DNA of 64,000 nt from Strigamia acuminata. Its lineage: Eukaryota. The stretch covers positions 25,668,001 to 25,732,000 of the forward strand of contig OX442314.1 in NCBI GenBank assembly GCA_949358305.1, in the 5' to 3' direction. How positions within the stretch are numbered: position 1 is the stretch's first letter; each line of letters opens with the position of its first letter. A program made the translations under genes and the position numbers. Under the pieces are notes generated by a model. It had not been told where the DNA came from and made no database searches. It saw only the letters and a program-made list of their open reading frames with translations. Of the stretch, positions 12,371 to 54,310 are shown piece after piece.

Positions 12371-12420
12371 AAGCAGAGCAACAATTTTACAATCAATAAA
12401 ATCATTTATTTACTAAGCTA

Positions 12421-12865
12421 TACTCTTTCCACACTCAAAATACCCCCCTGGAAGTTTGGCTCCCATTGGCCAAGCCATTTCACTTGTGTACTGATACAAA
12501 AAGAAGACCCAAAACACCAGAAATGCATTACACAGACATACAGATGTAAATACAAATACAGACATTGCAATCGATTTCCCATTGTTTGGAAATTGTTTGC
12601 TCTCCAGACATAGCAAGCAATAAAATTAAAATAAATGCATTTTATTTAAAAACAACATAAAATTTTATTTTCAAATTAGAAAATATATTTTATTACACAA
12701 TAACATTAAATGTAGATCATTTTTTCCATTATTATTCAGGAAAAGACTCAAAATCAAAGGGAACTACTTTTCCTCATAGCAGTAGTTCAACTGCAGTTCT
12801 GAGTGATCAGATTAGGCCAATGGGAGCCAAGCTTCCAGGGGGGTATTTCGAGTGTGGAAAGAGTA
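12421..12865. mobile_element. MITE downstream of CYP-C
   Basis: About 50-bp TIRs TACTCTTTCCACACTCaAAATACCCCCCTGGAAGtTTGGCTCCCATTGGCC, TA flanks. Confidence 0.85.
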
Positions 12866-13189
12866 TAGTCAACGTGGATTCTCATTATCATTAATAATCT
12901 TAGGCTTTGCACAGGATAATACAACTGCCTTGTCCCATTTGCTTCAAAAATATATTGTAATTATATAATCTTTTGCATTGAAATTAATAACCACGGATTT
13001 TAGACCTACAAAGACAATTGATCGTTGCACGCTGATCTAATATCTTTAGTTAATAATTGATAGGCATGAATACACAATAACCCTTTGTTTTATTTTTCTT
13101 TAAATTGAGAAAAGAAATTAATACGACCCATAATTTATCATCAAGCAAGACAAACATAACATGTCAACATCTATCAACTGACCATAATT

Positions 13190-13256
13190 ATGGACTTAAC
13201 AAATTTTACCAATATTCTGTTTGAACACTACCAGACCATTATTCTGATAGCAATTA
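13190..13256 (+). pseudogene. CYP-D-like 5' fragment (upstream region from about 12995 plus the first 22 codons) cut by a Copia insertion
   Basis: MDLTNFTNILFEHYQTIILIAI is nearly identical to the CYP-D start at 15658. The upstream region is also duplicated. Confidence 0.85.
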
Positions 13257-15080
13257 TGATGGAACAATGTTTTTACAAATTAACAATATATCTTTCTGTT
13301 GCTATGTAACTAAATGTTATCAATAAAAATGAAGATGAATGTGTGAATGTTCCCAAGTCTCCATTGCATGTTGGACTCTTCATAGGTTAAGAGCCCGAAC
13401 ACAAATTTCTTATGTTGGATATGGACTGTTTTTTGGCTAAATAATTAACTTACAGTACATATTGTGAGCAAGGTTGGAAATCTAAAGTTTTCATACAGTT
13501 TTAAATGTTCCATAAGAGTTAGGCCCTGAATTGTTTGGGTAATAAGCCTCATCCTGAACTGATAAAGTGATAAACCTCATACTCATTGCAAACCCAGAAC
13601 CAAGGTGTTTTGGCAGAGTTGAAAGTCCAATTAAAGACCGACTTGGCAAGAATCCAAATAAAATCTAGCAAGACAATTTTGGAATATATTGGGCGCACTA
13701 CAGCAGTAGCTCAGGAGCTCCAACCAATGGTAGTAGTAACTGTTATACCAGAACTTTGCTCACACATCCTGAAAGGATTGACTGCGGATTATATTAATTT
13801 TGCACGCAGCTGTGATGTGCTGGGGGTAAAAAAAAATAACAATTCAAGTCTTGAAATGTGCCTTATTGGCTGAGGACACAAAAAAGCCACAACAGCCAAC
13901 TTCAAATTTGGAGAACGCCAATTGGATACGAGGTGCAACCTCCTCTCAACGGGGCAAGGGTGACAGATCAGCCGGAGGTCAAACCCAACTCAAATGTTGA
14001 AATTGTGGGATCCCAGGCCATAGACAAGCGAAGTGTTGCTGCCCCCCAGCAGAGCCAAGACATTCAACCACTAACATCCGCAAACGTTGGGTCCCCAGAG
14101 GATGTGGATTATCTGGACCATCCACATCCAGGCAAGTAATAGATGTGGAGGATCAAATACCACAGTTCGCTCTTGTTGCAACGGACAGTAACCCTGCTCA
14201 AGTAGACAGGGAGAACAAACTTTTAATAGATCGAGAACAATTTGACCCTTGCATATGGTAAGACTTCACACAAGAGTGGAAACAGGAGTTTATTTACAAC
14301 ATTGGATAACTCATTCCCCAAGGTGGTTTCATTGGCTGATGGCAAAGATTAAAGCATCAGGAACTTGTGTAATGATGCTGAATATTTAGTTTGGTGATCA
14401 AGCCAGAGTACTCAAGTTGGAAGATACCTATTATGTGCCTGATTTGAGTGGTAATCTGCTATCAATTACCAGAATGACTGATTTGGGATATAAAGTGGCA
14501 TTTACCGCCAGTGGTTATACAGTTTCTACGATTGACAACGTGCAAGTGTTCCAAGCTTAATCCCATAGATGATTACAAACAAGAAACCTGAATGCACCTG
14601 CAATGGAGAAAAAAGCAGTAGTGATGGCTATTCAATCACAACCTCCATTGGCACCGCAGGTTGGCACACATAAACAATCGTGTCTTAAAAGATTTAATAA
14701 AGAAAAAGATGGTGATAGAGATGACAATTGACAAAGTTCATAAATGGAAATTGTGTGAGGAATGTGTGACAGCAAAGCACACCAGAAGCCAGTTTTTGCC
14801 TGCACCCTCAATCGGAGCCATGGGCCGCTACAGATGCTTCACGTAGAGCTTTGTTGTCTGATGCCACACCCTTCAATTGGAAGATCAGATTATATCATAT
14901 CTTCATGATCACAGATGACTACTCAAGGTGTTTATTCCCTCGTTTATTGTTGTCAAAGGTTGAGACTTCGCTAGTTTTTGAACAATTCATAGGTACACAC
15001 CAAAATAAGTTTGAAGCTTAAGTCAAGATGGTCCACTCAGATAATGGGACTGAATTTTAGAATCAGCAGCTCGGGGCAAT
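13257..15080 (+). mobile_element. Decayed, 3'-truncated Ty1/Copia retrotransposon
   Basis: Short TG..CA LTR 13257-13382, then GGTTAAGAGCCC (degenerate Copia PBS GGTTATGGGCCC). Broken zinc knuckle (C*NCGIPGHRQAKC), GAG-pre-integrase WHRRLAHIN...CEEC, integrase TDDYSR and HSDNGTEF; many stops and frameshifts. Confidence 0.85.
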
Positions 15081-15233
15081 TGTAGTTGGCACCAGTCGCC
15101 TCTATCCATTGCTGGTGCTGGTTTACATTCCCGCCAAAGTAGACTGTCCTCTTAAGACATAGTTCTAAGTAAAAAAAATAATTAAAAAGTGGGTAACCTT
15201 GGATTTTAGACCTAAAAAACATTGTTACGTTGC

Positions 15234-15307
15234 CAGGGCCGTTTCGACCTATGAGGCAAAGAGGCGGCCGCCTCAGGCGGCACACTGACAGGGACGGCAA
15301 TTTTGGC

Positions 15308-15350
<43 letters not shown>

Positions 15351-15467
15351 AAAAATATTTTCGAACGTATTCAGAAATAGGTTTTTTTGGGGGGGGGGGG
15401 AGGGGGGGGGGGTGGGCGGCATTTTTAATGCTCGCCTCACCACAGATATTTACTAGGAACGGCCCTG
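15234..15467. mobile_element. hAT-type MITE upstream of CYP-D
   Basis: TIR CAGGGCCGTT/AACGGCCCTG with a perfect 8-bp TSD TACGTTGC (15226-15233, 15468-15475). Absent from the paralogous upstream region near 13020. Confidence 0.9.
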
Positions 15468-15657
15468 TACGTTGCATAATAAAAACAATATCCTGTTGCA
15501 CACTAATCTAATATCTCCAGTTACTGTAATAATTGATAGCTATGAATACATGATAACTTAATTTTTTTTAAATTAAGAAAAATATTTAATATGACCAGGA
15601 ATTTATCATCAAGCAAGACAAACATAACAAGTCCACATCTATCAACTGACCATAATT

Positions 15658-16225
15658 ATGGACTTAACAATTTTCACCAATATTCTGTTTGAACACTACC
15701 AGACCATTATTCTGATTGCAATTATAACTACAATTCTATATTTTAAACCTCGAAAAAATTTACCATCAGGACCATGGGGATTGCCCATAGTAGGATATCT
15801 TCCTTTCTTGAAACAACCGGCTCATATAGGTCTCACAGAATTAGGAAAGAAATATGGTAATGTCATGAGGTAAACTTTAAATAAAATAAACCTTAACATT
15901 AAATAAACTTTTTAAAAAAAAATTTATTTGCAGTTATTACTCAGGGAGTGAGTTGGTGATAGTGTTGGGTGATTATAGCGCCATGAAAGAAGCATTTGTG
16001 AAGCAAGGAAATATATTTTCCGGAAAACCAAAAGCCAATGCTTTTCGATTCAATAAAACTGATAAAGGTGCAATTCTAGAATAAGCTTACTGAGTGATTA
16101 ACATGATTACGGTTTCAGGTATTATGATGGCAGAAGGCGAAATAGCAAGTCAACACCGTCGATTTATTGTATCAAGTCTAAGAGATTTTGGAATGGGGAC
16201 AACTAGTTTCGAGTCACGAATAATG
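15658..16225 (+). pseudogene. CYP-D copy 1, truncated after exon 3
   Basis: Exons 15658-15869, 15934-16067, 16119-16225. Intron 3 is replaced at 16443 by the LTR block and no exon 4 follows. Confidence 0.88.
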
Positions 16226-16442
16226 GTATTGACCTGTTGCCTCTACTTTAAAGAAACTTTGAAGTTTCGTAGCAATTAATTCAAAAATTTGATCAAAAAC
16301 AAACCTGGGTAATGCAAGATTCGAGGCACCTCTCAGTAAAAAAGAAAAAAGAAAAAGACGTGATAATTACCAAGTAAAGCCTCCTGATTCCGAAAATGAC
16401 ATTTAAAAGTGTCGGAAATGGTGGCTGTGCTCCCGCCATTGC

Positions 16443-18355
16443 TATGACGGTTTACAATGGCTATAAATGCCTATTTTCTATCAAGAAAGCGCTGTTGCGC
16501 CAATATGATGGTATTTTTACAATATTCTGTGTAAAACTGATAAATGTCTAGAATAAAGTCATTTATGATGTTTCAAATACAAAGATGTTCGTTTATTAAG
16601 AATAAACACTAATTTCCACATGATACTAAAGTATCACGGCATAATTACGAAGATTCGTCTGCTAAAACCCGCATTTGTCAATGCTCCATATTGCCACTAG
16701 ATGGCGCGATCGCAATTAGCGATAAATTCGAATACGAACTTGAAAACCTCATGATTAAATATAAACGTATATTTAATCAAGTGAATAAATTGTGTTAAAT
16801 ATTAATATAAATATATATTAAGTATCTGACATTGTTAAATACAATGTAACTTCCATTTCTGCGGGACAGAATGTTTAGCGATCAATCGGTCAACCGATCA
16901 ATCTGATTGGTGGAACCCATTTCCGGTCCTGGGTATCCAGTTCCGGTTGTAACAAGGATTAGCATAATTTGCATAAATGCTCCTCCGTATCCACTTCCGG
17001 TGATACGGGATTGGAGGGATTCGTGGAACCCATGTTCCAATTGGATGACTGGATTAATCCTTAAATCCAGTCAGGTTATATAAACCCAAACAATCGGCCA
17101 TTCCGCAGCTCTGTTTGATTATTTCTGTTTGGTATTGTTACTTAAGAAGTATGATTCGTTGTTCACGTAAAAAACCTTTTGGTTCTTTGTTGATTTATTC
17201 GCAAAGAACCGTTGCATGATTCTACAGAATCATGCCACCGCCGGCAATTGAAGTCGAAGTGCTGGGATTATTATGTTGCATAAATGTTACAGTCTACGGT
17301 TGCGACGCCGAAGGAGAACCCGCCGTTGTGCAATTCAGTATCCTCCGGACAGGACCAAGTTGTCTTTTTCGGTATGAACGTATTCCGTTACCACGAGTAG
17401 CATCGGTATTGTTGAGAATCGGTTCCTTCACCTGATGGTGCCAAAGCAGTCTGTTTTACAGTAACCACGAGTAGCACCAAGTGTTTGGCAAGCTGATTCT
17501 CATGGTATTCGATGCCAAAGCAGTCGGTCTATTATTAGTACCGCGAGAGATAAAACTGCTGTGCGGAGCCGCGAGCTATCGACCCCTGTGTACGTGGTAC
17601 CGTCAACCACTCGATGGACGACCGTGCTGCGACGCCGGGGACGCTTGATACCGTTCTGCATGGCAAGGCGTATATTCTAATCGATGGCAATTGTGTGTTG
17701 CGACGGGAAGCTTAATCTTCATTTTATTTATAACAGCAAAACTTAAACTCGACAACCAGTTGGACCAAAATCAAGTCAGAAGACTTAATCTCATATTGAA
17801 CTCAATATAACCGATAAGTTGACGACAACTTATTCCCGAAATATCTAAATAAGAATTCACAACGATATGAATTAAATATAATTCATAAGTGGAATATTGA
17901 TAAGTAAATGAATACATTTACTTACACCAATATCCTCCCAAAGTTGTGGCGGTGCAGACAAAGTCAACCGCAATGCTCAGATCATTCGATTTATCGACGT
18001 GCGATAGTTTACACAGCGAACCAAGGAAACCAGCGAAGCCGTATCGGACTCCAGGACACAGCCATCCGGCTTAAGATGACATCTATAATCAGGTCGAGCG
18101 ATGGGGAAACCGCTCCCATATTCCAGACCCGTAGTGATATTATTCTAGGGCCAGTTGGCCAATTCTTTGTATAGTTTAATAGCTGATTTAACTTGCCAAA
18201 TGTCGGCATTAGTCCTATGTATAATTTAGCCTTGATATTATTGTTTACCAACAATAAACTGTCTTGTATTTATCTCGTATTGTATTCACTGTTTATTTAT
18301 TGCGATCTCTTCCCGGTACCATTGTTAAATGGGAGTTGTGGTCGTCACCGTCACA
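16443..18355 (+). repeat. LTR 1 of the non-autonomous element (lacks the initial TG)
   Basis: Starts TATGACGG, ends CCGTCACA, followed by CG and the PBS. AATAAA near 18254. Confidence 0.85.
16693..16707 (+). promoter_or_regulatory. CTCF-type motif in LTR (also 24207-24221)
   Basis: GCCACTAGATGGCGC matches the bilaterian CTCF consensus. Binding is untested. Confidence 0.6.
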
Positions 18356-18960
18356 CGTGGAGGTCCCACCGAGATTAGGTTGCAATTAAATTCGATTGAA
18401 TTGCAACAGTGAATATTGGAGATAAATATTTAACTAAAAGATTTAAGTTAAAAATAGACAGATTAAATTTTCAGTTTATATTTCCATGTGAAGAAGTTAA
18501 ACTGATGAAATAGAAATACGTAGTAGATTTTCCTTCATTATTTTCGTTTGAAGATTTTAGGGATTTCAAAGACTACCACCTAATCTCACACGTGGAGGTC
18601 CCACCGAGATTAGGTTGCAATTAAATTCGATAGAATTGTAAAAGTGAATTTTGAGATAAATATTTAACTAAAAGATTTAGTTAAAAAACAGACAAGTTTC
18701 AAACCATGTTTATTTTCTTGAGAAACACCAAAACAGTCCTTTAACTAGGAATTTCGGAAGTTATAGACCTATCACACGATCACTGAAATAGGTTGCAAAT
18801 TAATTCGATCGAATTGCAAAAGCGAATCTTGAATCCGATATTAACTAAAAAATTTTAGTTAAAACAGACAAATAGATTTTCAGTTTATATTTTCATGTGA
18901 AAAGTTAAACTGACGAAATGGAAACGTTTAGTGAACTCTCTTTACTATTTTCGTTCGACA
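18351..18960 (+). repeat. 235-bp PBS-bearing tandem repeat: two PBS copies plus one degenerate unit
   Basis: TCACACG-PBS-TAGGTTGCAATTAAATTCGAT at 18351 and 18586. The degenerate unit at about 18772 lacks the PBS core. Confidence 0.9.
18358..18375 (+). other. Primer-binding site, tRNA-Gln (repeated at 18593, 25871, 26106, 26341)
   Basis: TGGAGGTCCCACCGAGAT is the 18-nt complement of the tRNA-Gln 3' end. Confidence 0.9.
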
Positions 18961-21530
18961 ATTTAAGGAATACGAAGTATTTTAAATAAGAAATCAAAAA
19001 AGTTTCGAGTGAAATAAGAATACAGATATTTTTTTCGAAGTTTGTTTTATTTCGAAAAGCTAAAAACATACAAGTTTAGAAGGCGGACTTCTTACGAATT
19101 TATCTTTCCACCTGAAAAGTTAAAACGAAGAAAACACCGCAACTATTTGGAAATATTTACAAGAAATTAAGTTTCTTGTAACTGTACGTCGACACCGATA
19201 GCCAGCGACCACGCGCCATAGCAATACGCGTCGATCTCCGTATCAAACGCAGCAGGGAAGCTACTCAAACCTTCAACGCAAGGTGCGAACGAATGCTTGG
19301 AAATTATGGCGGACAACAGATAAAAGACAGCGGAGAAATGTTACAGAAGGTTCGTAGAGATTTATTTAAGTGTCGCGAACTAATTTTTCCACTGCCATCG
19401 GTACCAAAGATAATTTAGTTGTTGGAGAAAAACAACACACTCCATTTCGCAGAAAAGATTTGCAAATCGAAATGAATATTACCTTTATTTGAAGGAATTA
19501 ACTATTTTCACAAAAAGTACATTTTTTCCTTCGGGACAATGGAAATTAAGAAAATATAAAATGGCGGCGAATGAAGTTGCCGACCACATAGAATAGTATT
19601 TTTTACATTGAAAGTTACGAATCACGATAAACGCTTTCCCTCGGAAAAGTAAAAGGATTTCATTCAATCTTTCCTTTCGGAAATTTAACAGTGTTTTAAG
19701 TTTCCAACGATATTTGGGTCTCCCAAATTTTGAGAATTTCTAAATGAAATTTAGCTGTTTGAAAAACAACGAATATTTTTAGTAATCTAATCGGACATTT
19801 TCCCACATGATTTCTTAAAACCGGAATAACAAATCCATTTGTGGCTATGAACTTTGCCACATGAAATATTTACGGAGCGAATATTTTTTAATTGGATTGA
19901 AGCTTTAAAATCAGATAGCTGATTTAAACGAAGAAAATAAGTTTCAAAGTAATTATTTTTCTTTCGGAAAAATCAAATAAATCACCGCTGATGAAAAGTT
20001 GTATTTTTCCATTCGAAAAAACTAAGAATTGCACAAGATTTATCTTCTATTTTGAACATAGATTTTATTCGGAAAAGGAAAGATTCTAGATACATTATTT
20101 TTCTCTAAAAATTAAGAATTTAGTCAATTTTCCTAAAGGTTAATGGAATGTCATCATATATTTCGTTCGTAATTTACGTGTTAAAGTTTAATCAGAAAAA
20201 CGATTGAATATGTTTTATTTGCGATAAGTAAAAGAAAGGTTCTTTAAAAATGGAATTTCGATGCAAATCCCACAGTAAAGGGAATGTTATGTGTGAGCAA
20301 TTAACGAAAAGTTGGAATAACTTCATTTTATTTCATTCAAAAGTAGTTGTGAAAAATCAATTTCAAATATTTTTCAAAGAAAAATTATTTTTATCGGAAA
20401 AAAGTAATTTACATGTCCTCGCGCGGACCGAGTAGTAAACTGCTTAATTGTGACATCGATACTGTTATTGTGTCACGTGTTATACGGAATTCCAAACCAG
20501 TGAATTACGAATTTTGGCGCGATAGGAATAGAAGTTTGACAGTGAAAGTTCTCCAGATTTGTCTTTTCATTTGAAAAGTTCAAATTGAGGAAATGCTGCA
20601 GCAGATGAAGGTATTTACGACAATTGAGATTTAAATATTCTTTCATTCAAAAGATAAAAGATCTCTGCAAAAACATCTCGTTATTAGAGATAAGGGGGAC
20701 GAAAATTATTAAAACGAATAATCAAAGACACGTCCTTCGTAAATATCGCAAAGGAATAACTAATTGTGAAAACAATTGTCCGCTCAGGAAAAGTGGAATT
20801 TAGCTAGATATTTTCTTTCGAAAAATCAAAGCAATTGTCATCAAAAAAGAAAGATTTGATGAATAATTTTTACCCAAAAGTCTAAAGGATTGTCGAATAG
20901 TTTTCTCCCGAAAAACAAGTACACATTTGTACCAATAACTTTATCGTTTAAAGTAAAATTTCGAATATTTTCTTTTGGAAGATTAGAGAATTAGATAATT
21001 TTTCTCGCAAAACAAATTTAAAGAATTTTAACGAATTTTTATTTGTTAAAAAAATTTGTTAAAAAAGGGGGAGATGGATGGTGAAAATTTATTTTTTCAC
21101 ACTCGAAAAATGGAATTTAAACCCGAAAAAGTAAAGACTTGGTCAAATTATTCTTCCTATTGGAAATGAATACACAATGTTGGGAATCGAAAATAGATTT
21201 CAATTACAAAGGAATGATTATTTGAACGATAATTGAATAAGAATAAGAAAAATTGAGAGTTTGAGAAAACTTTATTAAAGTTGTGGTTGTAACGATATCA
21301 CACACTAACGGAATAATTAAAAGAAAAATATTTTTTGAAGAAAAGTTATTTAATTATTTGGATTGGTAAAAATCCCAAAGTTCAAGAAGATTGAAGTAAG
21401 TTTATTTTATTTTCATTTGAAAAATACAATATTTTACGAATGTCTTCCCGAAGGAATTTTATTTTATCGGTAAAATTGAATCTCGAAGGGAACGGACTTA
21501 GTAGAGAACTACTAAATAGATGTAACGTCC

Positions 21531-21670
21531 TTTATACCATTGGCCGACACTAACATCCGCCAATCAGAAGTTGGGAGATCTAGGGATCCCCAGCCCCCTG
21601 CTATTAAAGGAGGACCAGATCAGATACTGATCATTCGCATCCAGACCAGACCAGAAGACGTGTTCCAGAG
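21531..21670 (+). promoter_or_regulatory. Putative internal Pol II promoter for the orphan ORF (also about 29281-29420)
   Basis: ATTGG/CCAAT boxes at 21539 and 21560, TATTAAA at 21602, Inr-like TCATTC at 21631 (A is 31 nt after the TATA start). GC-richer island about 250 bp before the ATG. Confidence 0.55.
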
Positions 21671-21879
21671 TCATCTTGACCACGCCGTCCCGATTTCAGT
21701 CACGATTCGAATTTTGTGTGCCGTGTAACCTGCAAAAGCTAACACGTGTCAAACAAACGCGAAGTTTAATTTTATTTTGTCAAAAGTAAAGTTTAGAAGT
21801 GTTTCTTGTTGAAAAGTGTATTATATTCGTCTTCTTTATAAATTAAAGAATTAAAATCGTCAGATTTTGAATTTTTTTT

Positions 21880-23361
21880 ATGGCTCAAAAACCATTGAAT
21901 ATGATCGATCCAAAAGGAAATAATAAGCAGACAAACTTAAATTTAAGTTCTGTACCACTTGGCGATCAAACAGAAAAGATTCCCGATCATTTTACTCTGT
22001 ATTGTAATCGTCATGGACTGGATAAAACCAAGTTTAAAAATATAATCGAAGCTTCAGACTATGTAAAAGCTAGGAACTGGCGAGATCGTACCCAATCTCA
22101 ATCTTCACATCAAGATCCAGTACGGAATCCACAAACATACAGCCGAAACTTAGTGAATCAAGATTCTCATACTATGTTTCAAACATCCAGTAGGGGATCT
22201 AAGTTAGAAAAGTTTAAACCACCTAATTCGGTAGATAAGGGGGAAGAGAATTATAAACCTAATAATTCTCATCCAGAGAGTTCGTTAACTAACCAGTCGG
22301 TTGTTCAGAACAAATTAAAACTCGTTTACAATCGAGATCAGCTAATTTCAGTTCGATATGCTAATCCAGCTGAAGCACAACGATATGTGGCTAGCCTTAA
22401 TCTGTCGATTAACCTACCGCTATCAAAAGAATTGGGAACCGTAAACAAAAGTTTTGGGCCACCAATATCAACGCAAAGGAAAGATATTCGGACTCCAAAC
22501 AAACATTTGCAGTCAAATAACGTACAACAACGTGCCCGATCGCCGATCACAAACTCATGTTTGCGGACGTATGATTTGTCTACCAAGAAGAGTCCCCAGC
22601 CAAGACAATTCTACCTAACGCCCATTTCAAATCGAAAAAAAGTCAAGCAAACTTTTCCCTTGAAAAAGTATTACCAACACGATAATGAGAATGATTTTAA
22701 ACCTAAAAAAGAAAGTTTTTTGACTAACCCACGGGAGATCCGGTATCAATTCGAACAGTATTGTAAACAATACCAGTTAAATTCAGCTGAATTTAAAAAT
22801 ATAAACGAAGCGCAACAATTCGTATTTCGAAATCAATACCGTAACCAACGACTAAAACCCGTCCCAGTCGTCAATCTGACGGAGATACAACAATTTGCGT
22901 CTGGAAAGCAACCCTGCAATATCCAGAATAATTCATCTCAACGAGAGGAATTAAGAACTTCAAAAAAGCGTTTTCGGTCACCAAGTCCAGCTGGTGATGA
23001 AGAAACTTCAAATACAAACCAACATGTTCAAAAACTGACTGAAAACCCAGGTTTCCAATCATCAGTTCCACGACTTAGAGTCAAATATAGATCCCCTCGT
23101 TTGTTGCGGGATTTCACAATTCCAAATATGGGTCCTTTCCACGTATGGTTTTCCAATGAGGGTCCCATTCATGTATGGTTTTCCAGAGATGACCTAAAAC
23201 AAAAAGTTGGGTCGTCACGGTCATTTACACTGCCAAGTCAGTACACTGTATGTAACTGCCCAAAGGAAAAACGTCGAAAGAAATCAGTACAGCAGGCTGA
23301 GAGATCTCGGAAATTCGCAAATATGCGAGCTCAATATTTAGCAAAGAATCATGTTGATTAA
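21880..23361 (+). CDS. Orphan 493-aa basic, K/N/Q/S-rich protein carried by the non-autonomous LTR element
   Basis: Long ATG ORF in very AT-rich surroundings, open in both units. No gag, protease, RT, integrase or env motifs recognised. Confidence 0.75.
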   Translation: MAQKPLNMIDPKGNNKQTNLNLSSVPLGDQTEKIPDHFTLYCNRHGLDKTKFKNIIEASDYVKARNWRDRTQSQSSHQDPVRNPQTYSRNLVNQDSHTMFQTSSRGSKLEKFKPPNSVDKGEENYKPNNSHPESSLTNQSVVQNKLKLVYNRDQLISVRYANPAEAQRYVASLNLSINLPLSKELGTVNKSFGPPISTQRKDIRTPNKHLQSNNVQQRARSPITNSCLRTYDLSTKKSPQPRQFYLTPISNRKKVKQTFPLKKYYQHDNENDFKPKKESFLTNPREIRYQFEQYCKQYQLNSAEFKNINEAQQFVFRNQYRNQRLKPVPVVNLTEIQQFASGKQPCNIQNNSSQREELRTSKKRFRSPSPAGDEETSNTNQHVQKLTENPGFQSSVPRLRVKYRSPRLLRDFTIPNMGPFHVWFSNEGPIHVWFSRDDLKQKVGSSRSFTLPSQYTVCNCPKEKRRKKSVQQAERSRKFANMRAQYLAKNHVD

Positions 23362-23954
23362 CATGATATGATACACAAAGATTCCCCGATTATAGTGTAA
23401 ACAGAAAATCCTCTTCTAAAAATCATGACCTCTCTTCTAAAGAAAAGGGGGACAAAATATAAAGTTAAAATTAACAATTCTCGAAAAGTAATATTACAGT
23501 ATTAAAAGACAACTAGTTTAAATTAAAATTAGTCAATTGTACAAAGAATACCAAGTGACTCCGGTCATGACAATTAAGGGGGACATTTTGATTCTTAAAT
23601 TGTCAACTCTTATCATCTAAAAGCTATTTATTGTATATTTATAGCGATACATCTGACTAGGCATATGAAATAAATATTTTGTGATAACACAAATGATGAT
23701 TTTATGTATGACGAAAGTTTCTTCAAAAAGAAGACTTGGAAATAAATTCTGGACTTGAATTTAGGCTATTAGAAAAGATTATTTCGGCAGAAAATCAGAA
23801 CTTAGATAATTCAAGTTAGTTTATGTAAACTCAAATTCGAAATTGGAAGTCACGGTATCTCCAAGATACATCAAGTCCGAAAATAGCATTTATGCTAATT
23901 AGGAGAATAACGAAAACTCTATAAAATATTATATAGTTGTGTTATTAAGGGGGA

Positions 23955-25868
23955 TGTATGACGGTTTACAATGGCTATAAATGCCTATTTTCTATCAAGA
24001 AAGCGCTGTTGCGCCAATATGATGGTATTTTTACAATATTCTGTGTAAAACTGATAAATGTCTAGAATAAAGTCATTTATGATGTTTCAAATACAAAGAT
24101 GTTCGTTTATTAAGAATAAACACTAATTTCCACATGATACTAAAGTATCACGGCATAATTACGAAGATTCGTCTGCTAAAACCCGCATTTGTCAATGCTC
24201 CATATTGCCACTAGATGGCGCGATCGCAATTAGCGATAAATTCGAATACGAACTTGAAAACCTCATGATTAAATATAAACGTATATTTAATCAAGTGAAT
24301 AAATTGTGTTAAATATTAATATAAATATATATTAAGTATCTGACATTGTTAAATACAATGTAACTTCCATTTCTGCGGGACAGAATGTTTAGCGATCAAT
24401 CGGTCAACCGATCAATCTGATTGGTGGAACCCATTTCCGGTCCTGGGTATCCAGTTCCGGTTGTAACAAGGATTAGCATAATTTGCATAAATGCTCCTCC
24501 GTATCCACTTCCGGTGATACGGGATTGGAGGGATTCGTGGAACCCATGTTCCAATTGGATGACTGGATTAATCCTTAAATCCAGTCAGGTTATATAAACC
24601 CAAACAATCGGCCATTCCGCAGCTCTGTTTGATTATTTCTGTTTGGTATTGTTACTTAAGAAGTATGATTCGTTGTTCACGTAAAAAACCTTTTGGTTCT
24701 TTGTTGATTTATTCGCAAAGAACCGTTGCATGATTCTACAGAATCATGCCACCGCCGGCAATTGAAGTCGAAGTGCTGGGATTATTATGTTGCATAAATG
24801 TTACAGTCTACGGTTGCGACGCCGAAGGAGAACCCGCCGTTGTGCAATTCAGTATCCTCCGGACAGGACCAAGTTGTCTTTTTCGGTATGAACGTATTCC
24901 GTTACCACGAGTAGCATCGGTATTGTTGAGAATCGGTTCCTTCACCTGATGGTGCCAAAGCAGTCTGTTTTACAGTAACCACGAGTAGCACCAAGTGTTT
25001 GGCAAGCTGATTCTCATGGTATTCGATGCCAAAGCAGTCGGTCTATTATTAGTACCGCGAGAGATAAAACTGCTGTGCGGAGCCGCGAGCTATCGACCCC
25101 TGTGTACGTGGTACCGTCAACCACTCGATGGACGACCGTGCTGCGACGCCGGGGACGCTTGATACCGTTCTGCATGGCAAGGCGTATATTCTAATCGATG
25201 GCAATTGTGTGTTGCGACGGGAAGCTTAATCTTCATTTTATTTATAACAGAAAAACTTAAACTCGACAACCAGTTGGACCAAAATCAAGTCAGAAGACTT
25301 AATCTCATATTGAACTCAATATAACCGATAAGTTGACGACAACTTATTCCCGAAATATCTAAATAAGAATTCACAACGATATGAATTAAATATAATTCAT
25401 AAGTGGAATATTGATAAGTAAATGAATACATTTACTTACACCAATATCCTCCCAAAGTTGTGGCGGTGCAGACAAAGTCAACCGCAATGCTCAGATCATT
25501 CGATTTATCGACGTGCGATAGTTTACACAGCGAACCAAGGAAACCAGCGAAGCCGTATCGGACTCCAGGACACAGCCATCCGGCTTAAGATGACATCTAC
25601 AATCAGGTCGAGCGATGGGGAAACCGCTCCCATATTCCAGACCCGTAGTGATATTATTCTAGGGCCAGTTGGCCAATTCTTTGTATAGTTTAATAGCTGA
25701 TTTAACTTGCCAAATGTCGGCATTAGTCCTATGTATAATTTAGCTCATCCATATTGTTTGCCAACAATAAACTGTCTTGTATTTATCTCGTATTGTATTC
25801 ACTGTTTATTTATTGCGATCTCTTCCCGGTACCATTGTTAAATGGGAGTTGTGGTCGTCACCGTCACA
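23955..25868 (+). repeat. LTR 2 (shared central LTR, 1914 bp)
   Basis: Preceded by PPT AAGGGGGA. TGTATGACGG...CCGTCACA imperfect inverted termini, followed by CG and PBS-Gln. Confidence 0.88.
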
Positions 25869-26710
25869 CGTGGAGGTCCCACCGAGATTAGGTTGCAATT
25901 AAATTCGATTGAATTGCAACAGTGAATATTGGAGATAAATATTTAACTAAAAGATTTAAGTTAAAAATAGACAGATTAAATTTTCAGTTTATATTTCCAT
26001 GTGAAGAAGTTAAACTGATGAAATAGAAATACGTAGTAGATTTTCCTTCATTATTTTCGTTTGAAGATTTTAGGGATTTCAAAGACTACCACCTAATCTC
26101 ACACGTGGAGGTCCCACCGAGATTAGGTTGCAATTAAATTCGATTGAATTGCAACAGTGAATATTGGAGATAAATATTTAACTAAAAGATTTAAGTTAAA
26201 AATAGACAGATTAAATTTTCAGTTTATATTTCCATGTGAAGAAGTTAAACTGATGAAATAGAAATACGTAGTAGATTTTCCTTCATTATTTTCGTTTGAA
26301 GATTTTAGGGATTTCAAAGACTACCACCTAATCTCACACGTGGAGGTCCCACCGAGATTAGGTTGCAATTAAATTCGATAGAATTGTAAAAGTGAATTTT
26401 GAGATAAATATTTAACTAAAAGATTTAGTTAAAAAACAGACAAGTTTCAAACCATGTTTATTTTCTTGAGAAACACCAAAACAGTCCTTTAACTAGGAAT
26501 TTCGGAAGTTATAGACCTATCACACGATCACTGAAATAGGTTGCAAATTAATTCGATCGAATTGCAAAAGCGAATCTTGAATCCGATATTAACTAAAAAA
26601 TTTTAGTTAAAACAGACAAATAGATTTTCAGTTTATATTTTCATGTGAAAAGTTAAACTGACGAAATGGAAACGTTTAGTGAACTCTCTTTACTATTTTC
26701 GTTCGACAAT
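25864..26710 (+). repeat. 235-bp PBS-bearing tandem repeat: three PBS copies plus one degenerate unit
   Basis: PBS at 25871, 26106 and 26341 (period 235). The extra unit explains the offset shift from 7514 to 7749. Confidence 0.92.
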
Positions 26711-29628
26711 TTAAGGAATACGAAGTATTTTAAATAAGAAATCAAAAAAGTTTCGAGTGAAATAAGAATACAGATATTTTTTTTCGAAGTTTGTTTTATT
26801 TCGAAAAGCTAAAAACATACAAGTTTAGAAGGCGGACTTCTTACGAATTTATCTTTCCACCTGAAAAGTTAAAACGAAGAAAACACCGCAACTATTTGGA
26901 AATATTTACAAGAAATTAAGTTTCTTGTAACTGTACGTCGACACCGATAGCCAGCGACCACGCGCCATAGCAATACGCGTCGATCTCCGTATCAAACGCA
27001 GCAGGGAAGCTACTCAAACCTTCAACGCAAGGTGCGAACGAATGCTTGGAAATTATGGCGGACAACAGATAAAAGACAGCGGAGAAATGTTACAGAAGGT
27101 TCGTAGAGATTTATTTAAGTGTCGCGAACTAATTTTTCCACTGCCATCGGTACCAAAGATAATTTAGTTGTTGGAGAAAAACAACACACTCCATTTCGCA
27201 GAAAAGATTTGCAAATCGAAATGAATATTACCTTTATTTGAAGGAATTAACTATTTTCACAAAAAGTACATTTTTTCCTTCGGGACAATGGAAATTAAGA
27301 AAATATAAAATGGCGGCGAATGAAGTTGCCGACCACGTAGAATAGTATTTTTTACATTGAAAGTTACGAATCACGATAAACGCTTTCCCTCGGAAAAGTA
27401 AAAGGATTTCATTCAATCTTTCCTTTCGGAAATTTAACAGTGTTTTAAGTTTCCAACGATATTTGGGTCTCCCAAATTTTGAGAATTTCTAAATGAAATT
27501 TAGCTGTTTGAAAAACAACGAATATTTTTAGTAATCTAATCGGACATTTTCCCACATGATTTCTTAAAACCGGAATAACAAATCCATTTGTGGCTATGAA
27601 CTTTGCCACATGAAATATTTACGGAGCGAATATTTTTTGATTGGATTGAAGCTTTAAAATCAGATAGCTGATTTAAACGAAGAAAATAAGTTTCAAAGTA
27701 ATTATTTTTCTTTCGGAAAAATCAAATAAATCACCGCTGATGAAAAGTTGTATTTTTCCATTCGAAAAAACTAAGAATTGCACAAGATTTATCTTCTATT
27801 TTGAACATAGATTTTATTCGGAAAAGGAAAGATTCTAGATACATTATTTTTCTCTAAAAATTAAGAATTTAGTCAATTTTCCTAAAGGTTAATGGAATGT
27901 CATCATATATTTCGTTCGTAATTTACGTGTTAAAGTTTAATCAGAAAAACGATTGAATATGTTTTATTTGCGATAAGTAAAAGAAAGGTTCTTTAAAAAT
28001 GGAATTTCGATGCAAATCCCACAGTAAAGGGAATGTTATGTGTGAGCAATTAACGAAAAGTTGGAATAACTTCATTTTATTTCATTCAAAAGTAGTTGTG
28101 AAAAATCAATTTCAAATATTTTTCAAAGAAAAATTATTTTTATCGGAAAAAAGTAATTTACATGTCCTCGCGCGGACCGAGTAGTAAACTGCTTAATTGT
28201 GACATCGATACTGTTATTGTGTCACGTGTTATACGGAATTCCAAACCAGTGAATTACGAATTTTGGCGCGATAGGAATAGAAGTTTGACAGTGAAAGTTC
28301 TCCAGATTTGCCTTTTCATTTGAAAAGTTCAAATTGAGGAAATGCTGCAGCAGATGAAGGTATTTACGACAATTGAGATTTAAATATTCTTTCATTCAAA
28401 AGATAAAAGATCTCTGCAAAAACATCTCGTTATTAGAGATAAGGGGGACGAAAATTATTAAAACGAATAATCAAAGACACGTCCTTCGTAAATATCGCAA
28501 AGGAATAACTAATTGTGAAAACAATTGTCCGCTCAGGAAAAGTGGAATTTAGCTAGATATTTTCTTTCGAAAAATCAAAGCAATTGTCATCAAAAAAGAA
28601 AGATTTGATGAATAATTTTTACCCAAAAGTCTAAAGGATTGTCGAATAGTTTTCTCCCGAAAAACAAGTACACATTTGTACCAATAACTTTATCGTTTAA
28701 AGTAAAATTTCGAATATTTTCTTTTGGAAGATTAGAGAATTAGATAATTTTTCTCGCAAAACAAATTTAAAGAATTTTAACGAATTTTTATTTGTTAAAA
28801 AAATTTGTTAAAAAAGGGGGAGATGGATGGTGAAAATTTATTTTTTTCACACTCGAAAAATGGAATTTAAACCCGAAAAAGTAAAGACTTGGTCAAATTA
28901 TTCTTCCTATTGGAAATGAATACACAATGTTGGGAATCGAAAATAGATTTCAATTACAAAGGAATGATTATTTGAACGATAATTGAATAAGAATAAGAAA
29001 AATTGAGAGTTTGAGAAAACTTTATTAAAGTTGTGGTTGTAACGATATCACACACTAACGGAATAATTAAAAGAAAAATATTTTTTGAAGAAAAGTTATT
29101 TAATTATTTGGATTGGTAAAAATCCCAAAGTTCAAGAAGATTGAAGTAAGTTTATTTTATTTTCATTTGAAAAATACAATATTTTACGAATGTCTTCCCG
29201 AAGGAATTTTATTTTATCGGTAAAATTGAATCTCGAAGGGAACGGACTTAGTAGAGAACTACTAAATAGATGTAACGTCCTTTATACCATTGGCCGACAC
29301 TAACATCCGCCAATCAGAAGTTGGGAGATCTAGGGATCCCCAGCCCCCTGCTATTAAAGGAGGACCAGATCAGATACTGATCATTCGCATCCAGACCAGA
29401 CCAGAAGACGTGTTCCAGAGTCATCTTGACCACGCCGTCCCGATTTCAGTCACGATTCGAATTTTGTGTGCCGTGTAACCTGCAAAAGCTAACACGTGTC
29501 AAACAAACGCGAAGTTTAATTTTATTTTGTCAAAAGTAAAGTTTAGAAGTGTTTCTTGTTGAAAAGTGTATTATATTCGTCTTCTTTATAAATTAAAGAA
29601 TTAAAATCGTCAGATTTTGAATTTTTTT

Positions 29629-31110
29629 ATGGCTCAAAAACCATTGAATATGATCGATCCAAAAGGAAATAATAAGCAGACAAACTTAAATTTAAGTTCT
29701 GTACCACTTGGCGATCAAACAGAAAAGATTCCCGATCATTTTACTCTGTATTGTAATCGTCATGGACTGGATAAAACCAAGTTTAAAAATATAATCGAAG
29801 CTTCAGACTATGTAAAAGCTAGGAACTGGCGAGATCGTACCCAATCTCAATCTTCACATCAAGATCCAGTACGGAATCCACAAACATACAGCCGAAACTT
29901 AGTGAATCAAGATTCTCATACTATGTTTCAAACATCCAGTAGGGGATCTAAGTTAGAAAAGTTTAAACCACCTAATTCGGTAGATAAGGGGGAAGAGAAT
30001 TATAAACCTAATAATTCTCGTCCAGAGAGTTCGTTAACTAACCAGTCGGTTGTTCAGAACAAATTAAAACTCGTTTACAATCGAGATCAGCTAATTTCAG
30101 TTCGATATGCTAATCCAGCTGAAGCACAACGATATGTGGCTAGCCTTAATCTGTCGATTAACCTACCGCTATCAAAAGAATTGGGAACCGTAAACAAAAG
30201 TTTTGGGCCACCAATATCAACGCAAAGGAAAGATATTCGGACTCCAAACAAACATTTGCAGTCAAATAACGTACAACAACGTGCCCGATCGCCGATCACA
30301 AACTCATGTTTGCGGACGTATGATTTGTCTACCAAGAAGAGTCCCCAGCCAAGACAATTCTACCTAACGCCCATTTCAAATCGAAAAAAGGTCAAGCAAA
30401 CTTTTCCCTTGAAAAAGTATTACCAACACGATAATGAGAATGATTTTAAACCTAAAAAAGAAAGTTTTTTGACTAACCCACGGGAGATCCGGTATCAATT
30501 CGAACAGTATTGTAAACAATACCAGTTAAATTCAGCTGAATTTAAAAATATAAACGAAGCGCAACAATTCGTATTTCGAAATCAATACCGTAACCAACGA
30601 CTAAAACCCGTCCCAGTCGTCAATCTGACGGAGATACAACAATTTGCGTCTGGAAAGCAACCCTGCAATATCCAGAATAATTCATCTCAACGAGAGGAAT
30701 TAAGAACTTCAAAAAAGCGTTTTCGGTCACCAAGTCCAGCTGGTGATGAAGAAACTTCAAGTACAAACCAACATGTTCAAAAACTGACTGAAAACCCAGG
30801 TTTCCAATCATCAGTTCCACGACTTAGAGTCAAATATAGATCCCCTCGTTTGTTGCGGGATTTCACAATTCCAAATATGGGTCCTTTCCACGTATGGTTT
30901 TCCAATGAGGGTCCCATTCATGTATGGTTTTCCAGAGATGACCTAAAACAAAAAGTTGGGTCGTCACGGTCATTTACACTGCCAAGTGAGTACACTGTGT
31001 GTAACTGCCCAAAGAAAAAACGTCGAAAGAAATCAGTACAGCAGGCTGAGAGATCTCGGAAATTTGCAAATATGCGAGCTCAATATTTAGCAAAGAATCA
31101 TGTTGATTAA
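29629..31110 (+). CDS. Second copy of the orphan 493-aa protein
   Basis: ATG at 29629. Differs from copy 1 by H/R, N/S, Q/E, E/K and a few synonymous changes. Confidence 0.75.
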   Translation: MAQKPLNMIDPKGNNKQTNLNLSSVPLGDQTEKIPDHFTLYCNRHGLDKTKFKNIIEASDYVKARNWRDRTQSQSSHQDPVRNPQTYSRNLVNQDSHTMFQTSSRGSKLEKFKPPNSVDKGEENYKPNNSRPESSLTNQSVVQNKLKLVYNRDQLISVRYANPAEAQRYVASLNLSINLPLSKELGTVNKSFGPPISTQRKDIRTPNKHLQSNNVQQRARSPITNSCLRTYDLSTKKSPQPRQFYLTPISNRKKVKQTFPLKKYYQHDNENDFKPKKESFLTNPREIRYQFEQYCKQYQLNSAEFKNINEAQQFVFRNQYRNQRLKPVPVVNLTEIQQFASGKQPCNIQNNSSQREELRTSKKRFRSPSPAGDEETSSTNQHVQKLTENPGFQSSVPRLRVKYRSPRLLRDFTIPNMGPFHVWFSNEGPIHVWFSRDDLKQKVGSSRSFTLPSEYTVCNCPKKKRRKKSVQQAERSRKFANMRAQYLAKNHVD

Positions 31111-32659
31111 CATGATATGATACACAAAGATTCCCCGATTATAGTGTAAACAGAAAATCCTCTTCTAAAAATCATGACCTCTCTTCTAAAGAAAAGGGGG
31201 ACAAAATATAAAAGTTAGAATTAACAAAATTTTGAAAAGTAATGCTACATTATTAAGACAACTAGTTTAATTAAATTAGTCAATTGTACAAAGAATACCA
31301 AGTGACTCCGGTCATGACAATTAAGGGGGACAATTATGATTTCTTAATTGTCAACTCTTATCATCTAAAAGCTATTTATTGTATATTTATAGCGATACAT
31401 CTGACTAGGCATATGAAATAAATATTTTGTGATAACACAAATGATGATTTTATGTATGACGAAAAAAGCTTAACTGGTTCGGGGCCGATGGAATGGTCCC
31501 GGAGGCTATTTAAGACGTAATCCTGAGGGGGGGTGTCAAATGCCTTTGACACATCAGTTTTAGCCAGATTGAGTGTGTTAGCTTGATCACATGAGTGAGT
31601 GATGTAAAGGTACAGGGAAACGAAACTTTAGCATTGAAGCATTATTGTGTCGTACTATAACATGTTATAGTTATGACTTGATTCGTCAACAGTTGTGCTC
31701 GCCAAGATTTTTTGAAAAATAGTGATTGTCTACCTCTTTACATAGCTCCATTACGCCTTTTTTTAAGGGCCTTGGAGACCCATACATCCAATTTAGAAAA
31801 GTTTCCTGGGATATAGACGGTCTCAAATCTGTTTTAGTTTTTAATTTTATCTCATTCTGTTTACAAGTTATGAGATATATTGTAAATTGTCACTTTTTGG
31901 AGTTTTTAATTTTTTTCTCTTTAACTATTCATTTTTTTCCAAAAAACTTTTAACGAAATGATAGCTCTAATAATCCTTTAAATCCTCCTAAAACCATTTT
32001 TACTTGTGAGAAATAGTTTCTGAGAAATTTCAAATATTAAAAGTTTCAAAAATAGGAATATGCCATTTTTTTGGCAAGGAGTTGTATATTTTTATAATAT
32101 AAAATTTTAATTTTAATTTTAATGTTTTTTTATATGGATTATAATTACGAACTAATTATAATTAAACTATAATGATCAAAGAATCAATAAATTGAAACTA
32201 TTAAAGCCAGATTGTAATTAGCGTTATTTGTGCCACGAAAATAATTCACCTGCATTAGAATTAAGTACAGTAATTAAAATATTCAGCTATAAATGTCGGT
32301 AGTCAAAAGTTGCGTGTCATTCAGTTCCATCTTGACAATTCATCATCAATGCTCCTGAATAACTTTGGTAAGCATAAATAGTCATGTCTAGTATTATTTT
32401 ATTTTAGGCCTACTCTGATTTCTTTTAAATTCTATTACTGCGTTAACTTTTTAGTGTAAAAAAACAAACCTTTGATACACGTTTTCAAAAGAGCGTACTT
32501 ACATCAGACTTTATTGATTTTTTGCATTAGAATTAGAAAGAGTCCAACAATCTCAAATTTTATTTTATTTTTTAAATTTAAAAACAAAAAAAGCAAAAAG
32601 TGACTGGTTAATAAAGCCGTTAGTTAGTTAGGACATAGAGTAAAGACAGTAAGAGCTGT

Positions 32660-34130
32660 CACTCTCTGTGGGGCCTTTGAAACATTTTACTCCGTTGGGA
32701 CATTCTGTTGACAAATTTCCTGGTTCGTGACACTTAAAACATTTCAGCTCGTTTGTACAATCCGCTCTTTGGTGTTTTTCCTCGCCACATTTGAAGCATT
32801 TCAATCCTGCGTCGTATCCTTTGCCAGTTGGCTTTGCTGCAAGCGTCTTCCCTTTCGTCTAGAATAACGCGCTTTTTATCCGATCTTCAACTTCTTGCAT
32901 CGTCTCGACTATCTCGCTGATGTGTTGGTATTTTTGAAAATACATCGGTGTCGCTGCTGTCTTAATTTTCAGTCTATATACAGTAACTCTTCGCATCTTT
33001 GATTGTCATTCCCAAGTTTTCGCATGTCGCCCATTTTCGTCGCAAATAAGTCTCGGCGGCTTCGTCGTTCGTTTGCCGTGCTTGTAATAAGCGTTCCCTA
33101 TCTTTATACGTAAGTTGTCGTTCTGGAAAGTTTTTCTTCAACTCATTCGCCCATTCGTCAAACTTCCGTATCGTCGTTCCTGTGTTATCGTGCCATACTT
33201 TCGCCGGTCTGTCTAATGCCGCTGCCGCTGTCGTCACTTTGGTCATGTTCGTCCACTTATAATTATAATCTTATGCGTATTCATGAACGTTTCCCAACCA
33301 TTGAGTCGTCGTACGTAGCTCGTTCCGGTCGCCCGAAAATCGTGGTAATTTTGGCGCGTTCTTGACTTCTTTCGGCTCTTTTTGCATCAGCTGTTTAAAG
33401 ATCGCCGCCATTTGTTCCGTACTAAACATCCCGTTCGCTGGTTGTCCGTTTACTGCGCGTCTTTCGACGTCGTTTTGTTCTTTGATCGATTCGTTATTGA
33501 CTTCTTCATCTTCTTCTTCATATTCTTCTTCGACTCCCATTTCCGCACGTAACGTTTGTTGCAACAGATACTGCATTTGAAACTTTAACTTCGGTGACAC
33601 AATATTACGCGCAAGTAATAGTGGCTTAATCTCTTTTACTCTCAACTTATTCCATTCAGCATCGGTTGAAAGTTCTCCACGTCGGATCTTTGCTACGATT
33701 GCTTCTCTTCCGGCCACCTCGTAATTCGGTTCAACCTTCTTAAAACACGTGTTTGTTCCAGCAAATCGTCTTCTTTAGATCTCTGAACGGTCCACTTGTT
33801 TTATCGTTGTCTCCGAACGTTTCCGTCACAAAAGCAATTGTCTTCTCGTTTTATACTTCAATCGTTTCGTCTACTTATTCGTCTTTAGTTCGCATGAATT
33901 TGTTGTATCCCACTTCTGATGTAAACTATCTTAAATCTAAGAGTAGCTGACTTGAAAATAACATAACATGCACGCTGCTTAGTTTAAATTCAAGATCTTT
34001 ATTCTAATTTCAACACGAAAAGAAACGCTCCTATTGGCTAATTACAAATACGTTATCAAGACCTTTTCGTCTCGATCCCTTTCTCGTTCTCGTGTTCGTT
34101 TCGTGTTTCTCGGAAACCCGAAAGTTCACA
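32660..34130 (-). mobile_element. Decayed mdg3-like Ty3/Gypsy remnant: LTR 33920-34130, PBS-Leu 33907-33919, interrupted gag
   Basis: gag-like fragments 33271-33717 (LPRFSG..QWL) and 32974-33246. Two zinc knuckles, CFKCGEEKHQRADC and CFKCHEPGNLSTEC, at about 32700-32800. In-frame stops; no pol. Confidence 0.8.
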
Positions 34131-34425
34131 GAATGCTAAAAACAATGACGGCTATTCGTTTCAGAATTTCATAAAGGGGTAAATAAATTTTTTTAAATAC
34201 TTTACGACCGCAAACATTCGATTGAATAGCATAAATAGTTTTTGCTTGAGTTTGTGATATTTCTCATTTTTCTCACAAAAAATAAATTCGTACAAAAATT
34301 AAACCAATGTAATTTTATAAGTTCAACCATCAACTATATCAGTTATTGATAAAATCATAAAAGCAATTACCGATAACACACAGCCTTAGGCAGCCAGACT
34401 ACAATATCTCACTGATGATATAAGA

Positions 34426-38269: not shown

Positions 38270-38862
38270 AGAATTTAATTCATTAACTTTTAAATGTTGA
38301 AAAACTTGACGTAATTTCCCTGTTTTAAGTATTAAATCTATTAGTAAAGTATGTAGAAAAAATTATCCACCCAATAAAAACCTGGAATTATTAGCCAATA
38401 ATTATTTTCATTTCAGAACAATATTTTTGGCAGTTTAGATAAATAGCAAAAAAAGAAAATTATATTGTAGGATGGAAAACAAATTACAAATACAGTAACA
38501 TGTGTCGCGCTTGGTCTGTCAGTTTTTTTTGGGTTGACGTTCACACTCAGAATCTAAGAGTTGAGGCTCGGTCGAGAGCTGAGTGAGAAGTGATTATGTA
38601 AAGTTAAATTGCCCAGAAAAAAACGTTTAGTGGACGTATATGCTCGAAACGTCCAAGCCCTTCCGGGTGATGTATTAGGGGCCGAAATACACAATGTCCA
38701 ACAAAACCAAAACAAATTCGTGTGATATAATATGCGAAATGTCATTTCAATGTCATTTAATGAGTCCAAACATCAGTTATTGATAAGATAAACTATAAAC
38801 CAACTTAACCGATAACAGCATAAGACAGTCACAGTCACATAGAACATCTTACTACTATAAGT

Positions 38863-43093: not shown

Positions 43094-43095
43094 CG

Positions 43096-43113
43096 TGGGG
43101 GCCCGTCCGGGAT
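43096..43113 (+). other. Primer-binding site, tRNA-Pro
   Basis: TGGGGGCCCGTCCGGGAT, one mismatch from canonical PBS-Pro TGGGGGCTCGTCCGGGAT. Confidence 0.9.
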
Positions 43114-54275: not shown

Positions 54276-54310
54276 GAAAATTGAGATCGCTCCGATCCGA
54301 GATCGAAGCT

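Follow-up and report, generated by a model that had tools for sequence, protein, structure and literature searches.

A dispersed LTR retrotransposon family of Strigamia acuminata with no detectable gag or pol and an orphan 493-codon reading frame

Results

Organization of the element

The 64,000-nt stretch of Strigamia acuminata DNA analysed here (assembly GCA_949358305.1, contig OX442314.1, forward-strand positions 25,668,001 to 25,732,000; hereafter the window, in whose coordinates all positions are given) contains at 16443-31464 a piece of a long terminal repeat (LTR) retrotransposon whose interior carries one orphan open reading frame (ORF) of 493 codons. All features of the element described below lie on the plus strand. 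While the first-pass annotation took this piece for a single element, comparison of the window with itself indicates a tandem LTR-interior-LTR-interior arrangement with no third LTR: the segment 16443-18694 recurs at 23957-26208 and the segment 18351-23716 recurs at 26099-31464. The second LTR (LTR2, 23955-25868) is complete, comprises 1,914 bp with TG..CA ends, and its termini, TGTATGACGG and CCGTCACA, are imperfectly inverted. The first one (LTR1, 16443-18355), with a TATA-like motif at 17077 and an AATAAA signal at 18253, begins 2 nt inside the LTR terminus and hence is not of the TG..CA type. The two LTRs differ in 9 of 1,915 aligned columns (99.5% identity).

Behind each of both LTRs a CG spacer is followed by an 18-nt primer-binding site (PBS), which in the first unit occupies positions 18358-18375, 2 nt past the LTR, and is complementary to the 3′ end of tRNA-Gln(TTG). 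Of the six viral loci that contain the 15-nt core of this PBS, four have a tRNA-Gln(TTG), predicted by ARAGORN, whose 3′ end coincides exactly with the core. A polypurine tract (PPT) of 8 nt (23947-23954) adjoins LTR2, and similar tracts are present at 23445 and 23576. The cis signals of a retrotransposon, which the first-pass annotation had listed in their correct order, are thus confirmed for LTR2, the PBS and the abutting PPT; its TG..CA description does not apply to the shortened LTR1. The first interior is 5,599 bp long and the LTR-to-LTR unit 9.4 kb, which is above the 4-kb size criterion of large retrotransposon derivatives (LARDs). The second interior (25869-31464) is 99.4% identical to the first and ends just past a cryptic LTR-start motif.

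Apart from the ORF, the interior had been described as consisting only of AT-rich decayed repeats, a view that our analysis does not sustain. A 235-bp unit composed of the LTR end, the PBS and a hairpin is repeated in tandem at 18351-18971, with two good copies and a degenerate one; the second interior has three good PBS-bearing units besides a degenerate one. The hairpin at 18379-18406 has a z-score of -3.1, and the other two unit hairpins are not significant. Further downstream, the AT-rich non-coding region 18700-21480 contains 16 palindromic motifs of the form TTTC-N3-7-GAAA in 2.8 kb, as compared to 2.6 expected, and none of 200 shuffled sequences reached this number. The STAT-type motif TTC-N3-GAA, considered as a candidate, is not enriched (2 vs. 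2.3 expected). To judge from its sequence, the TTTC-N3-7-GAAA array may act as an array of DNA-binding sites or as a series of short RNA hairpins.

Absence of gag and pol

The family is without detectable reverse transcriptase, RNase H, integrase or protease. In nine stop-masked frames of the LTR, 5′ interior and 3′ untranslated region no Pfam family was found at E<=1; a decayed gag fragment to the right of the element, by contrast, gave zf-CCHC with E of 0.0002. Profiles of Gypsy elements (60/120 pol homologues) and of BEL/Pao elements (seven frames) detected no domain in the element at E<1, a result no better than that of the reversed control, and in the same search the control, the pol of a Gypsy element neighbouring the one described here, scored 1,073 bits. 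There is no DNA or protein similarity between the element and the two Gypsy-type elements of the window, and the search of Rfam over the unit gave nothing at E<=1, with chance rows only at the PBS. The lack of gag and pol noted in the first-pass annotation is therefore upheld by the Pfam, Gypsy and BEL profiles alike.

Copy number, dispersal and age of the family

Three DNA sequencing runs of two studies contain the unit (X1 and X2 of one study, X3 of another); no RNA run was among those listed for it. Copy numbers were estimated, as a rough measure, from the ratio of contig depth over the element to the depth of the contig representing its host flank. In X1, six single interior contigs (241-560 nt) with 0-1 other letters have depths of 8,982-11,413, which at a flank contig depth of 101 gives ratios of 89-113. 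Positional depths in X2 correspond to 62-78 copies, and close ORF contigs in X3 to 2.8-4.4 copies. The summed depth in X3 is 580-1,250 over the 5′ interior vs. 215-450 over the ORF, and in view of the greater depth of the 5′ interior, diverged relatives may be present in X3 besides the close copies. The joint of PPT, TG and LTR has a depth of 6,000 in X1 and 14,031 in X2.

Contigs in which the LTR breaks off precisely at the last position of its 3′ end (18355) and gives way to unlike flanks were found in X1 (five), X2 (five) and X3 (eight) in a check that covered a short stretch around this end; the agreement of these flanks with the consensus is 0.48-0.54. Together with the high and homogeneous depth, these junctions indicate a non-autonomous LTR family that is dispersed and was amplified recently. 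The first-pass annotation had made its reading depend on other copies with LTR-defined ends, and such copies are evident from the depth and from the 3′-end junctions in three of three DNA runs. In a further run, X6, there is a spliced cytochrome P450 contig and, from the element, only short diverged scraps, which weigh neither way.

A separate observation concerns the LTRs themselves. The predicted R region (17100-18280) measures about 1.15 kb and contains internal repeats, and the summed contig depth is much greater over R than over U3. Each LTR could yield a self-contained non-coding RNA of 1.2 kb, and the 5′ polyadenylation signal would need to be bypassed.

The orphan reading frame and its product

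The ORF is intact in both interiors (21880-23361 and 29629-31110), and its two copies differ by four missense and three silent changes. In 200 shuffled versions of the interior no stop-free frame exceeded 161 codons, and the single intact 493-aa frame recognized in the first-pass annotation is thus confirmed in either copy. It is placed 3.5 kb past the PBS, in the 3′ half of the interior and in sense orientation. A predicted promoter at 21539-21638 precedes it, with CCAAT-type boxes at 21539 and 21560, the TATA-like octamer TATTAAAG at 21602 and, 29 nt past the latter, the initiator-like motif TCATT at 21631, followed by a 248-nt leader without ATG (2.8 expected). The TATA and initiator elements that the first-pass annotation ascribed to the ORF are therefore present, but the octamer recurs at 21273, and the term self-promoted applies only at the level of motifs. 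An origin of this promoter from a small LTR by capture was rejected, as the promoter has no second copy, polyadenylation signal, PBS or target-site duplication (TSD). A bacterial promoter scan and a scan of prokaryote genomes, which returned chance matches, are inapplicable here.

No homologues of the ORF product were found in Pfam (no significant match), among 1.84 billion representative sequences, in the Atlas (no usable match) or in viral contigs, and a collection of 5.8 billion sequences, searched at near and shorter lengths, gave 0 matches. The protein is basic (isoelectric point 10.1) and polar, with a maximum hydropathy of 0.75 and short basic clusters, including KRRKK; it contains no transmembrane segment and no CCHC knuckle. 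It is predicted to be mostly disordered, with short helices set apart by long polar linkers and no long helical block. Three helix-loop-helix repeats can be distinguished, at about aa 37-66, 146-172 and 290-319. The internal repeat score of 82 compares with 41.6 +/- 7.1 in shuffled sequences (0 of 500 reached it), and that of a second pair, 54, with 31.0 (2 of 500); an old internal duplication thus underlies the protein. The three copies of this module of about 30 aa keep the same hydrophobic core positions.

A model of the module based on a three-row alignment is a helix-loop-helix with a pLDDT of 81. In the search for similar folds the best result was a VIA Z of 4.2 (root-mean-square deviation 3.2, 40 aligned residues) to unrelated small helical domains, and Foldseek gave no match. 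A resemblance in topology to the SAP/LEM (helix-extended-helix) domain, and one to RNase H1 hybrid-binding domains, found no support in this search. The repeat-module profile had a best E of 0.84 against PDB sequences, and against 120 Gypsy pol proteins, seven BEL frames and the window it retrieved self matches only.

Both window copies preserve the frame of the ORF, as do the majority in X1 and the X3 contigs of 2% divergence, and a variant in X3 with an N-terminal deletion also retains it. In X1, the ORF contigs contain 0 other letters over 21685-22245 and one over 22301-22780.

The locus and its junctions

The element lies in a P450 gene cluster that is tandemly duplicated in the window: 1-8549 equals 33724-42272 (100%, 8,549 bp), and 8542-16443 corresponds to 55140-63042 (99.975%, 7,903 bp). 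It occupies the junction of this duplication, and the two cluster copies differ by the presence of the element at 16443-31464 and by the insertion of the neighbouring Gypsy element. A P450 gene at 15650-16226 is truncated by the element within an intron. Both ends of the insert (16443 and 31455-31464) fall in the 10-nt LTR-start motif. Apart from LTR2, the full 10-mer has a single occurrence in each interior, directly after which the second interior breaks off, about 240 bp short of the expected start of a third LTR. The left end has 1 nt in common with host DNA, and the right end 3 nt in common with unrelated DNA. A circular intermediate opened at the LTR-start motif is a candidate that would account for both insert ends.

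The two interiors differ in the number of PBS units and by a cluster of differences at 23460-23597, which indicates that they are distinct members of the family. At 19588, 19890, 22271, 22641 and 23012 the first copy has A in place of a G that the second copy shares with the run majority, which amounts to a G-to-A bias private to the first copy. The flank contig of X1 and X2 continues through 16443 without entering the element. The window copy is not a product of integrase; it is either a piece of two units trapped where the P450 duplication has its breakpoint or an assembly misjoin. We infer that the arrangement is private to the assembled animal, with DNA of the element captured at a break, unless it results from such a misjoin.

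Neighbouring elements and the search for a helper

The neighbouring autonomous Gypsy element (42273-55144) has identical 822-bp LTRs, a 4-bp TSD, a gag of 1,045 aa and a pol of 1,380 aa, the latter with matches of 30-44% in arachnids and fish. Its pol is followed by a third, unclassified frame of 933 aa (51474-54275), which looks spliced to upstream exons (50800-51480). The CG spacer before the PBS is the only feature common to this element and to the one described here. As a demonstrable helper it was rejected, since it shows no similarity and has a different PBS, which we take to be of the tRNA-Pro type. The decayed gag-like fragment with a zinc knuckle at 32700-34000 (minus strand) comes from a third, unrelated LTR element.

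A metagenome scan for an LTR end joined to the same Gln PBS yielded 15 loci, all from other organisms, none of which resembles the element beyond the junction. Of seven of them examined with Pfam, five belong to BEL/Pao elements and two matched no family; the sharing of the PBS with BEL/Pao elements means that a tRNA-Gln PBS does not imply a Gypsy helper. Seven loci (L001, L007, L010, L008, L002, L011, and L013), in which an LTR-end-like ACA goes with this Gln PBS and a translated search gave no match to Gypsy pol, possibly represent other non-autonomous or unclassified families.

Discussion

The cis signals, the lack of gag and pol, the copy depth and the LTR-end junctions support the proposal of the first-pass annotation that the element is an LTR retroelement that is non-autonomous, depends on a helper and has a single orphan ORF. 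We moderately favour the explanation that it represents a dispersed, high-copy LTR family copied in trans by a tRNA-Gln-primed autonomous element, and that the ORF, with its predicted internal promoter, is an accessory gene retained from an autonomous ancestor. The retention of an accessory gene, considered by itself, is likewise somewhat probable. As in the standard LTR cycle, the transcript would span from the 5′ LTR to the polyadenylation signal of the 3′ LTR, and it would be packaged by the Gag of the helper, copied with tRNA-Gln and the PPT as primers, and inserted by the helper integrase. That packaging, reverse transcription and integration are provided by a helper in trans is, by analogy to this cycle, very probable; the helper could be either a BEL/Pao or a Gypsy element. 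With regard to the origin of the family, the leading candidate is a deletion derivative of a Gypsy element with the ORF as its accessory gene: the unclassified third ORF of the neighbouring Gypsy element indicates that accessory genes are present in LTR elements of this host.

A possible, still tentative role for the ORF product is that of a nuclear protein that would bind the motif array of its own element and promote its transcription or export, in analogy to the gene23 product of Grande and to CERV of Cer1. The three helix-loop-helix repeats of the basic, mostly disordered protein would recognize the TTTC-N-GAAA array of the interior, as DNA or as RNA, and the bound protein would raise the transcription of the element, its export or its escape from silencing. 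Such binding would explain why a non-autonomous element retains only this gene. A bolder version, to which we assign a lower probability, sees here a true animal satellite retroelement that has shed gag and pol entirely and would retain, through selection, one self-promoted nuclear protein of a new family; by binding the interior motif this protein would let the element out-replicate its helper, with about a hundred copies in one population vs. a handful in another.

Several results weigh against the favoured explanation or its parts. No autonomous partner was seen among the elements of the window and the metagenome PBS loci. At this locus a TSD is absent, as shown by the empty site at 63042, and the copy numbers come from a rough measure. 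The internal promoter that would drive the ORF is predicted from matches to motifs. The TTTC-N3-7-GAAA motif is enriched in the host flank as well (17 vs. 6.7 expected), at about one sixth of its density in the interior, and the array folds equally well in sense and antisense (mean z -0.88 vs. -0.85). Repeats 1 and 3 of the protein agree in 16, 18 and 13 of 27 codons at the first, second and third codon positions, respectively, only a slight signal at the protein level. Among the 13 ORF variants listed (40 of 369 rows), eight are missense and five silent, with no clear purifying selection; a young burst would keep the ORF intact by descent alone, and one single-copy contig of X2 within the ORF has 17 other letters and two gaps. 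The full-length protein model (pLDDT 41, single sequence) is too poor to rule on a capsid fold.

Some of these points also fit an unlikely alternative, in which the ORF is a passenger, namely, a gene captured with its promoter from a mobile element, a virus or the host, which rides the recent burst without helping it. The listed variants with no clear purifying selection, the youth and homogeneity of the burst, and the lower depth over the ORF than over the 5′ interior in X3, as if some relatives lacked the ORF or had diverged, are all as expected for a passenger. It is harder to reconcile with a frame that both copies preserve, as well as the majority in X1 and the 2%-diverged X3 contigs, with the deletion variant that stays in frame, with the same hydrophobic core positions retained in three repeats, and with the lack of a donor among the 1.84 billion representatives. 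Even less probable is that the ORF encodes a Gag that has diverged strongly and follows a long, repeat-rich 5′ leader, so that the element, like those of the TR-GAG and BHIKHARI type, would form its own particle and borrow only Pol. The ORF is the sole one between the PBS and the PPT and is in sense orientation, its single-sequence model leaves room for a capsid, and the ORF of BHIKHARI was of unknown nature until structure prediction revealed a Gag (PMC12067270). Against this assignment speak the lack of CCHC and of any match to Gypsy and BEL profiles or Pfam Gag families, the short predicted helices with long polar linkers between them, and the position of the ORF 3.5 kb past the PBS and behind promoter-like motifs. 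That the sequence is not a retroelement family at all, and is a local repeat, segmental or of satellite type, in which LTR signals are mimicked, is hardly credible: the missing TSD and the non-canonical ends at this locus would suit it, but the exact 18-nt PBS, the abutting PPT and the inverted termini do not, and the junctions in three runs, at which LTR ends pass into many unlike flanks, contradict it.

A further alternative, compatible with the favoured explanation and rather doubtful in our view, accepts the family as real and attributes the window arrangement to an assembly misjoin of two haplotypes via a high-copy repeat. The identity or near-identity of the long flanking blocks, the flank contig of X1 and X2 that passes 16443 without the element, and the letters of the first copy at 22641, which are missing from all three runs, would be consistent with it. 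Capture of a DNA end is the better fit to a left end at most 2 nt from the LTR terminus, to both ends in the same 10-nt motif and to the 1- and 3-nt microhomology; a further point against a misjoin is that the two host copies differ in a fresh Gypsy insertion, whose LTRs are identical and which has a TSD of 4 bp. If the junctions are real, the element marks a duplication breakpoint in a P450 detoxification cluster.

LTR retrotransposons commonly carry accessory genes, most of them unexplained. In the family described here an accessory ORF is seemingly the sole gene left, and the family is amplifying now, which isolates the role of this ORF from gag and pol and makes the question testable. What the present analysis adds is a family estimated at about 90-110 near-identical copies in X1, 60-80 in X2 and about 3-4 close ORF copies in X3. 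The number of close copies thus differs an estimated 20-30-fold between the two studies. At about 9.4 kb and about 100 copies the family would come close to 1 Mb, although annotation based on domains misses it.

Comparison with known systems

The cqUNK group of Culex quinquefasciatus consists of 38 LTR families that are non-coding and master-less and contain tandem repeats; in two of them the PBS is of the Gln type (PMC3286476). Similarly to cqUNK and to plant LARDs, the element described here has LTRs, a PBS, a PPT, a multi-kb interior with internal repeats, no gag or pol and no identified master (PMC3286476, PMC13570524), and tandem LTR-interior-LTR arrays such as the one in the window are common in non-autonomous families (PMC13570524). 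However, cqUNK families are without coding potential, and the LTRs of those listed have 176-931 bp, as compared to LTRs of 1.9 kb and a 493-aa ORF here (PMC3286476); this intact ORF also sets the element apart from LARDs in the strict, non-coding sense. Helenus and Ajax, which are short miniature retrotransposons with terminal repeats (TRIMs), are not comparable (PMC10886601).

In having one long ORF only and in being recently active and non-autonomous, the family resembles BHIKHARI-1 and -2 of zebrafish, ENS-1/ERNI of chicken and plant TR-GAG elements, but the ORF of the latter three groups is a Gag with a capsid domain, while no feature of a Gag was detected in the ORF described here, which is located behind promoter-like motifs in the 3′ half (PMC12067270, PMC13570524). 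The claim of the first-pass annotation that the design is unfamiliar among animal families is therefore overstated in view of the non-coding Culex families, BHIKHARI and ENS-1, although the ORF of the latter two is a Gag. An animal family whose only gene is self-promoted and not a Gag was not found in the literature searched, outside of which were Repbase/Dfam and most subscription papers.

Accessory genes in the 3′ interior with repeats nearby are known from Grande, where gene23 of maize has its own promoter and a nuclear product (PMC7264820), and from Retand elements, some families of which are non-autonomous (PMC7264820, PMC11963269). Unlike the ORF described here, which is in sense orientation in an animal element without gag-pol and matches no family, these are mostly antisense ORFs of plant Gypsy elements, have known domains (TRP28) and usually accompany gag-pol (PMC7264820, PMC11963269). 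Among animals, the ORF3s of bdelloid rotifer LTR elements are family-specific, and the non-autonomous TelKA2n retains ORF3 (PMC5408684), while CERV of Caenorhabditis elegans Cer1 is an orphan nuclear accessory protein that exports genomic RNA (PMC10309623). Our element shares with them a family-specific accessory gene in an animal LTR element; it differs in that theirs are spliced and occur in autonomous elements or in deletion derivatives with remnants of gag or pol, of which there are none here (PMC5408684, PMC10309623). Within the literature compared, to which Repbase/Dfam do not belong, non-coding and Gag-only non-autonomous LTR families of animals are known, and the family described here suggests that an accessory-gene-only form exists beside them.

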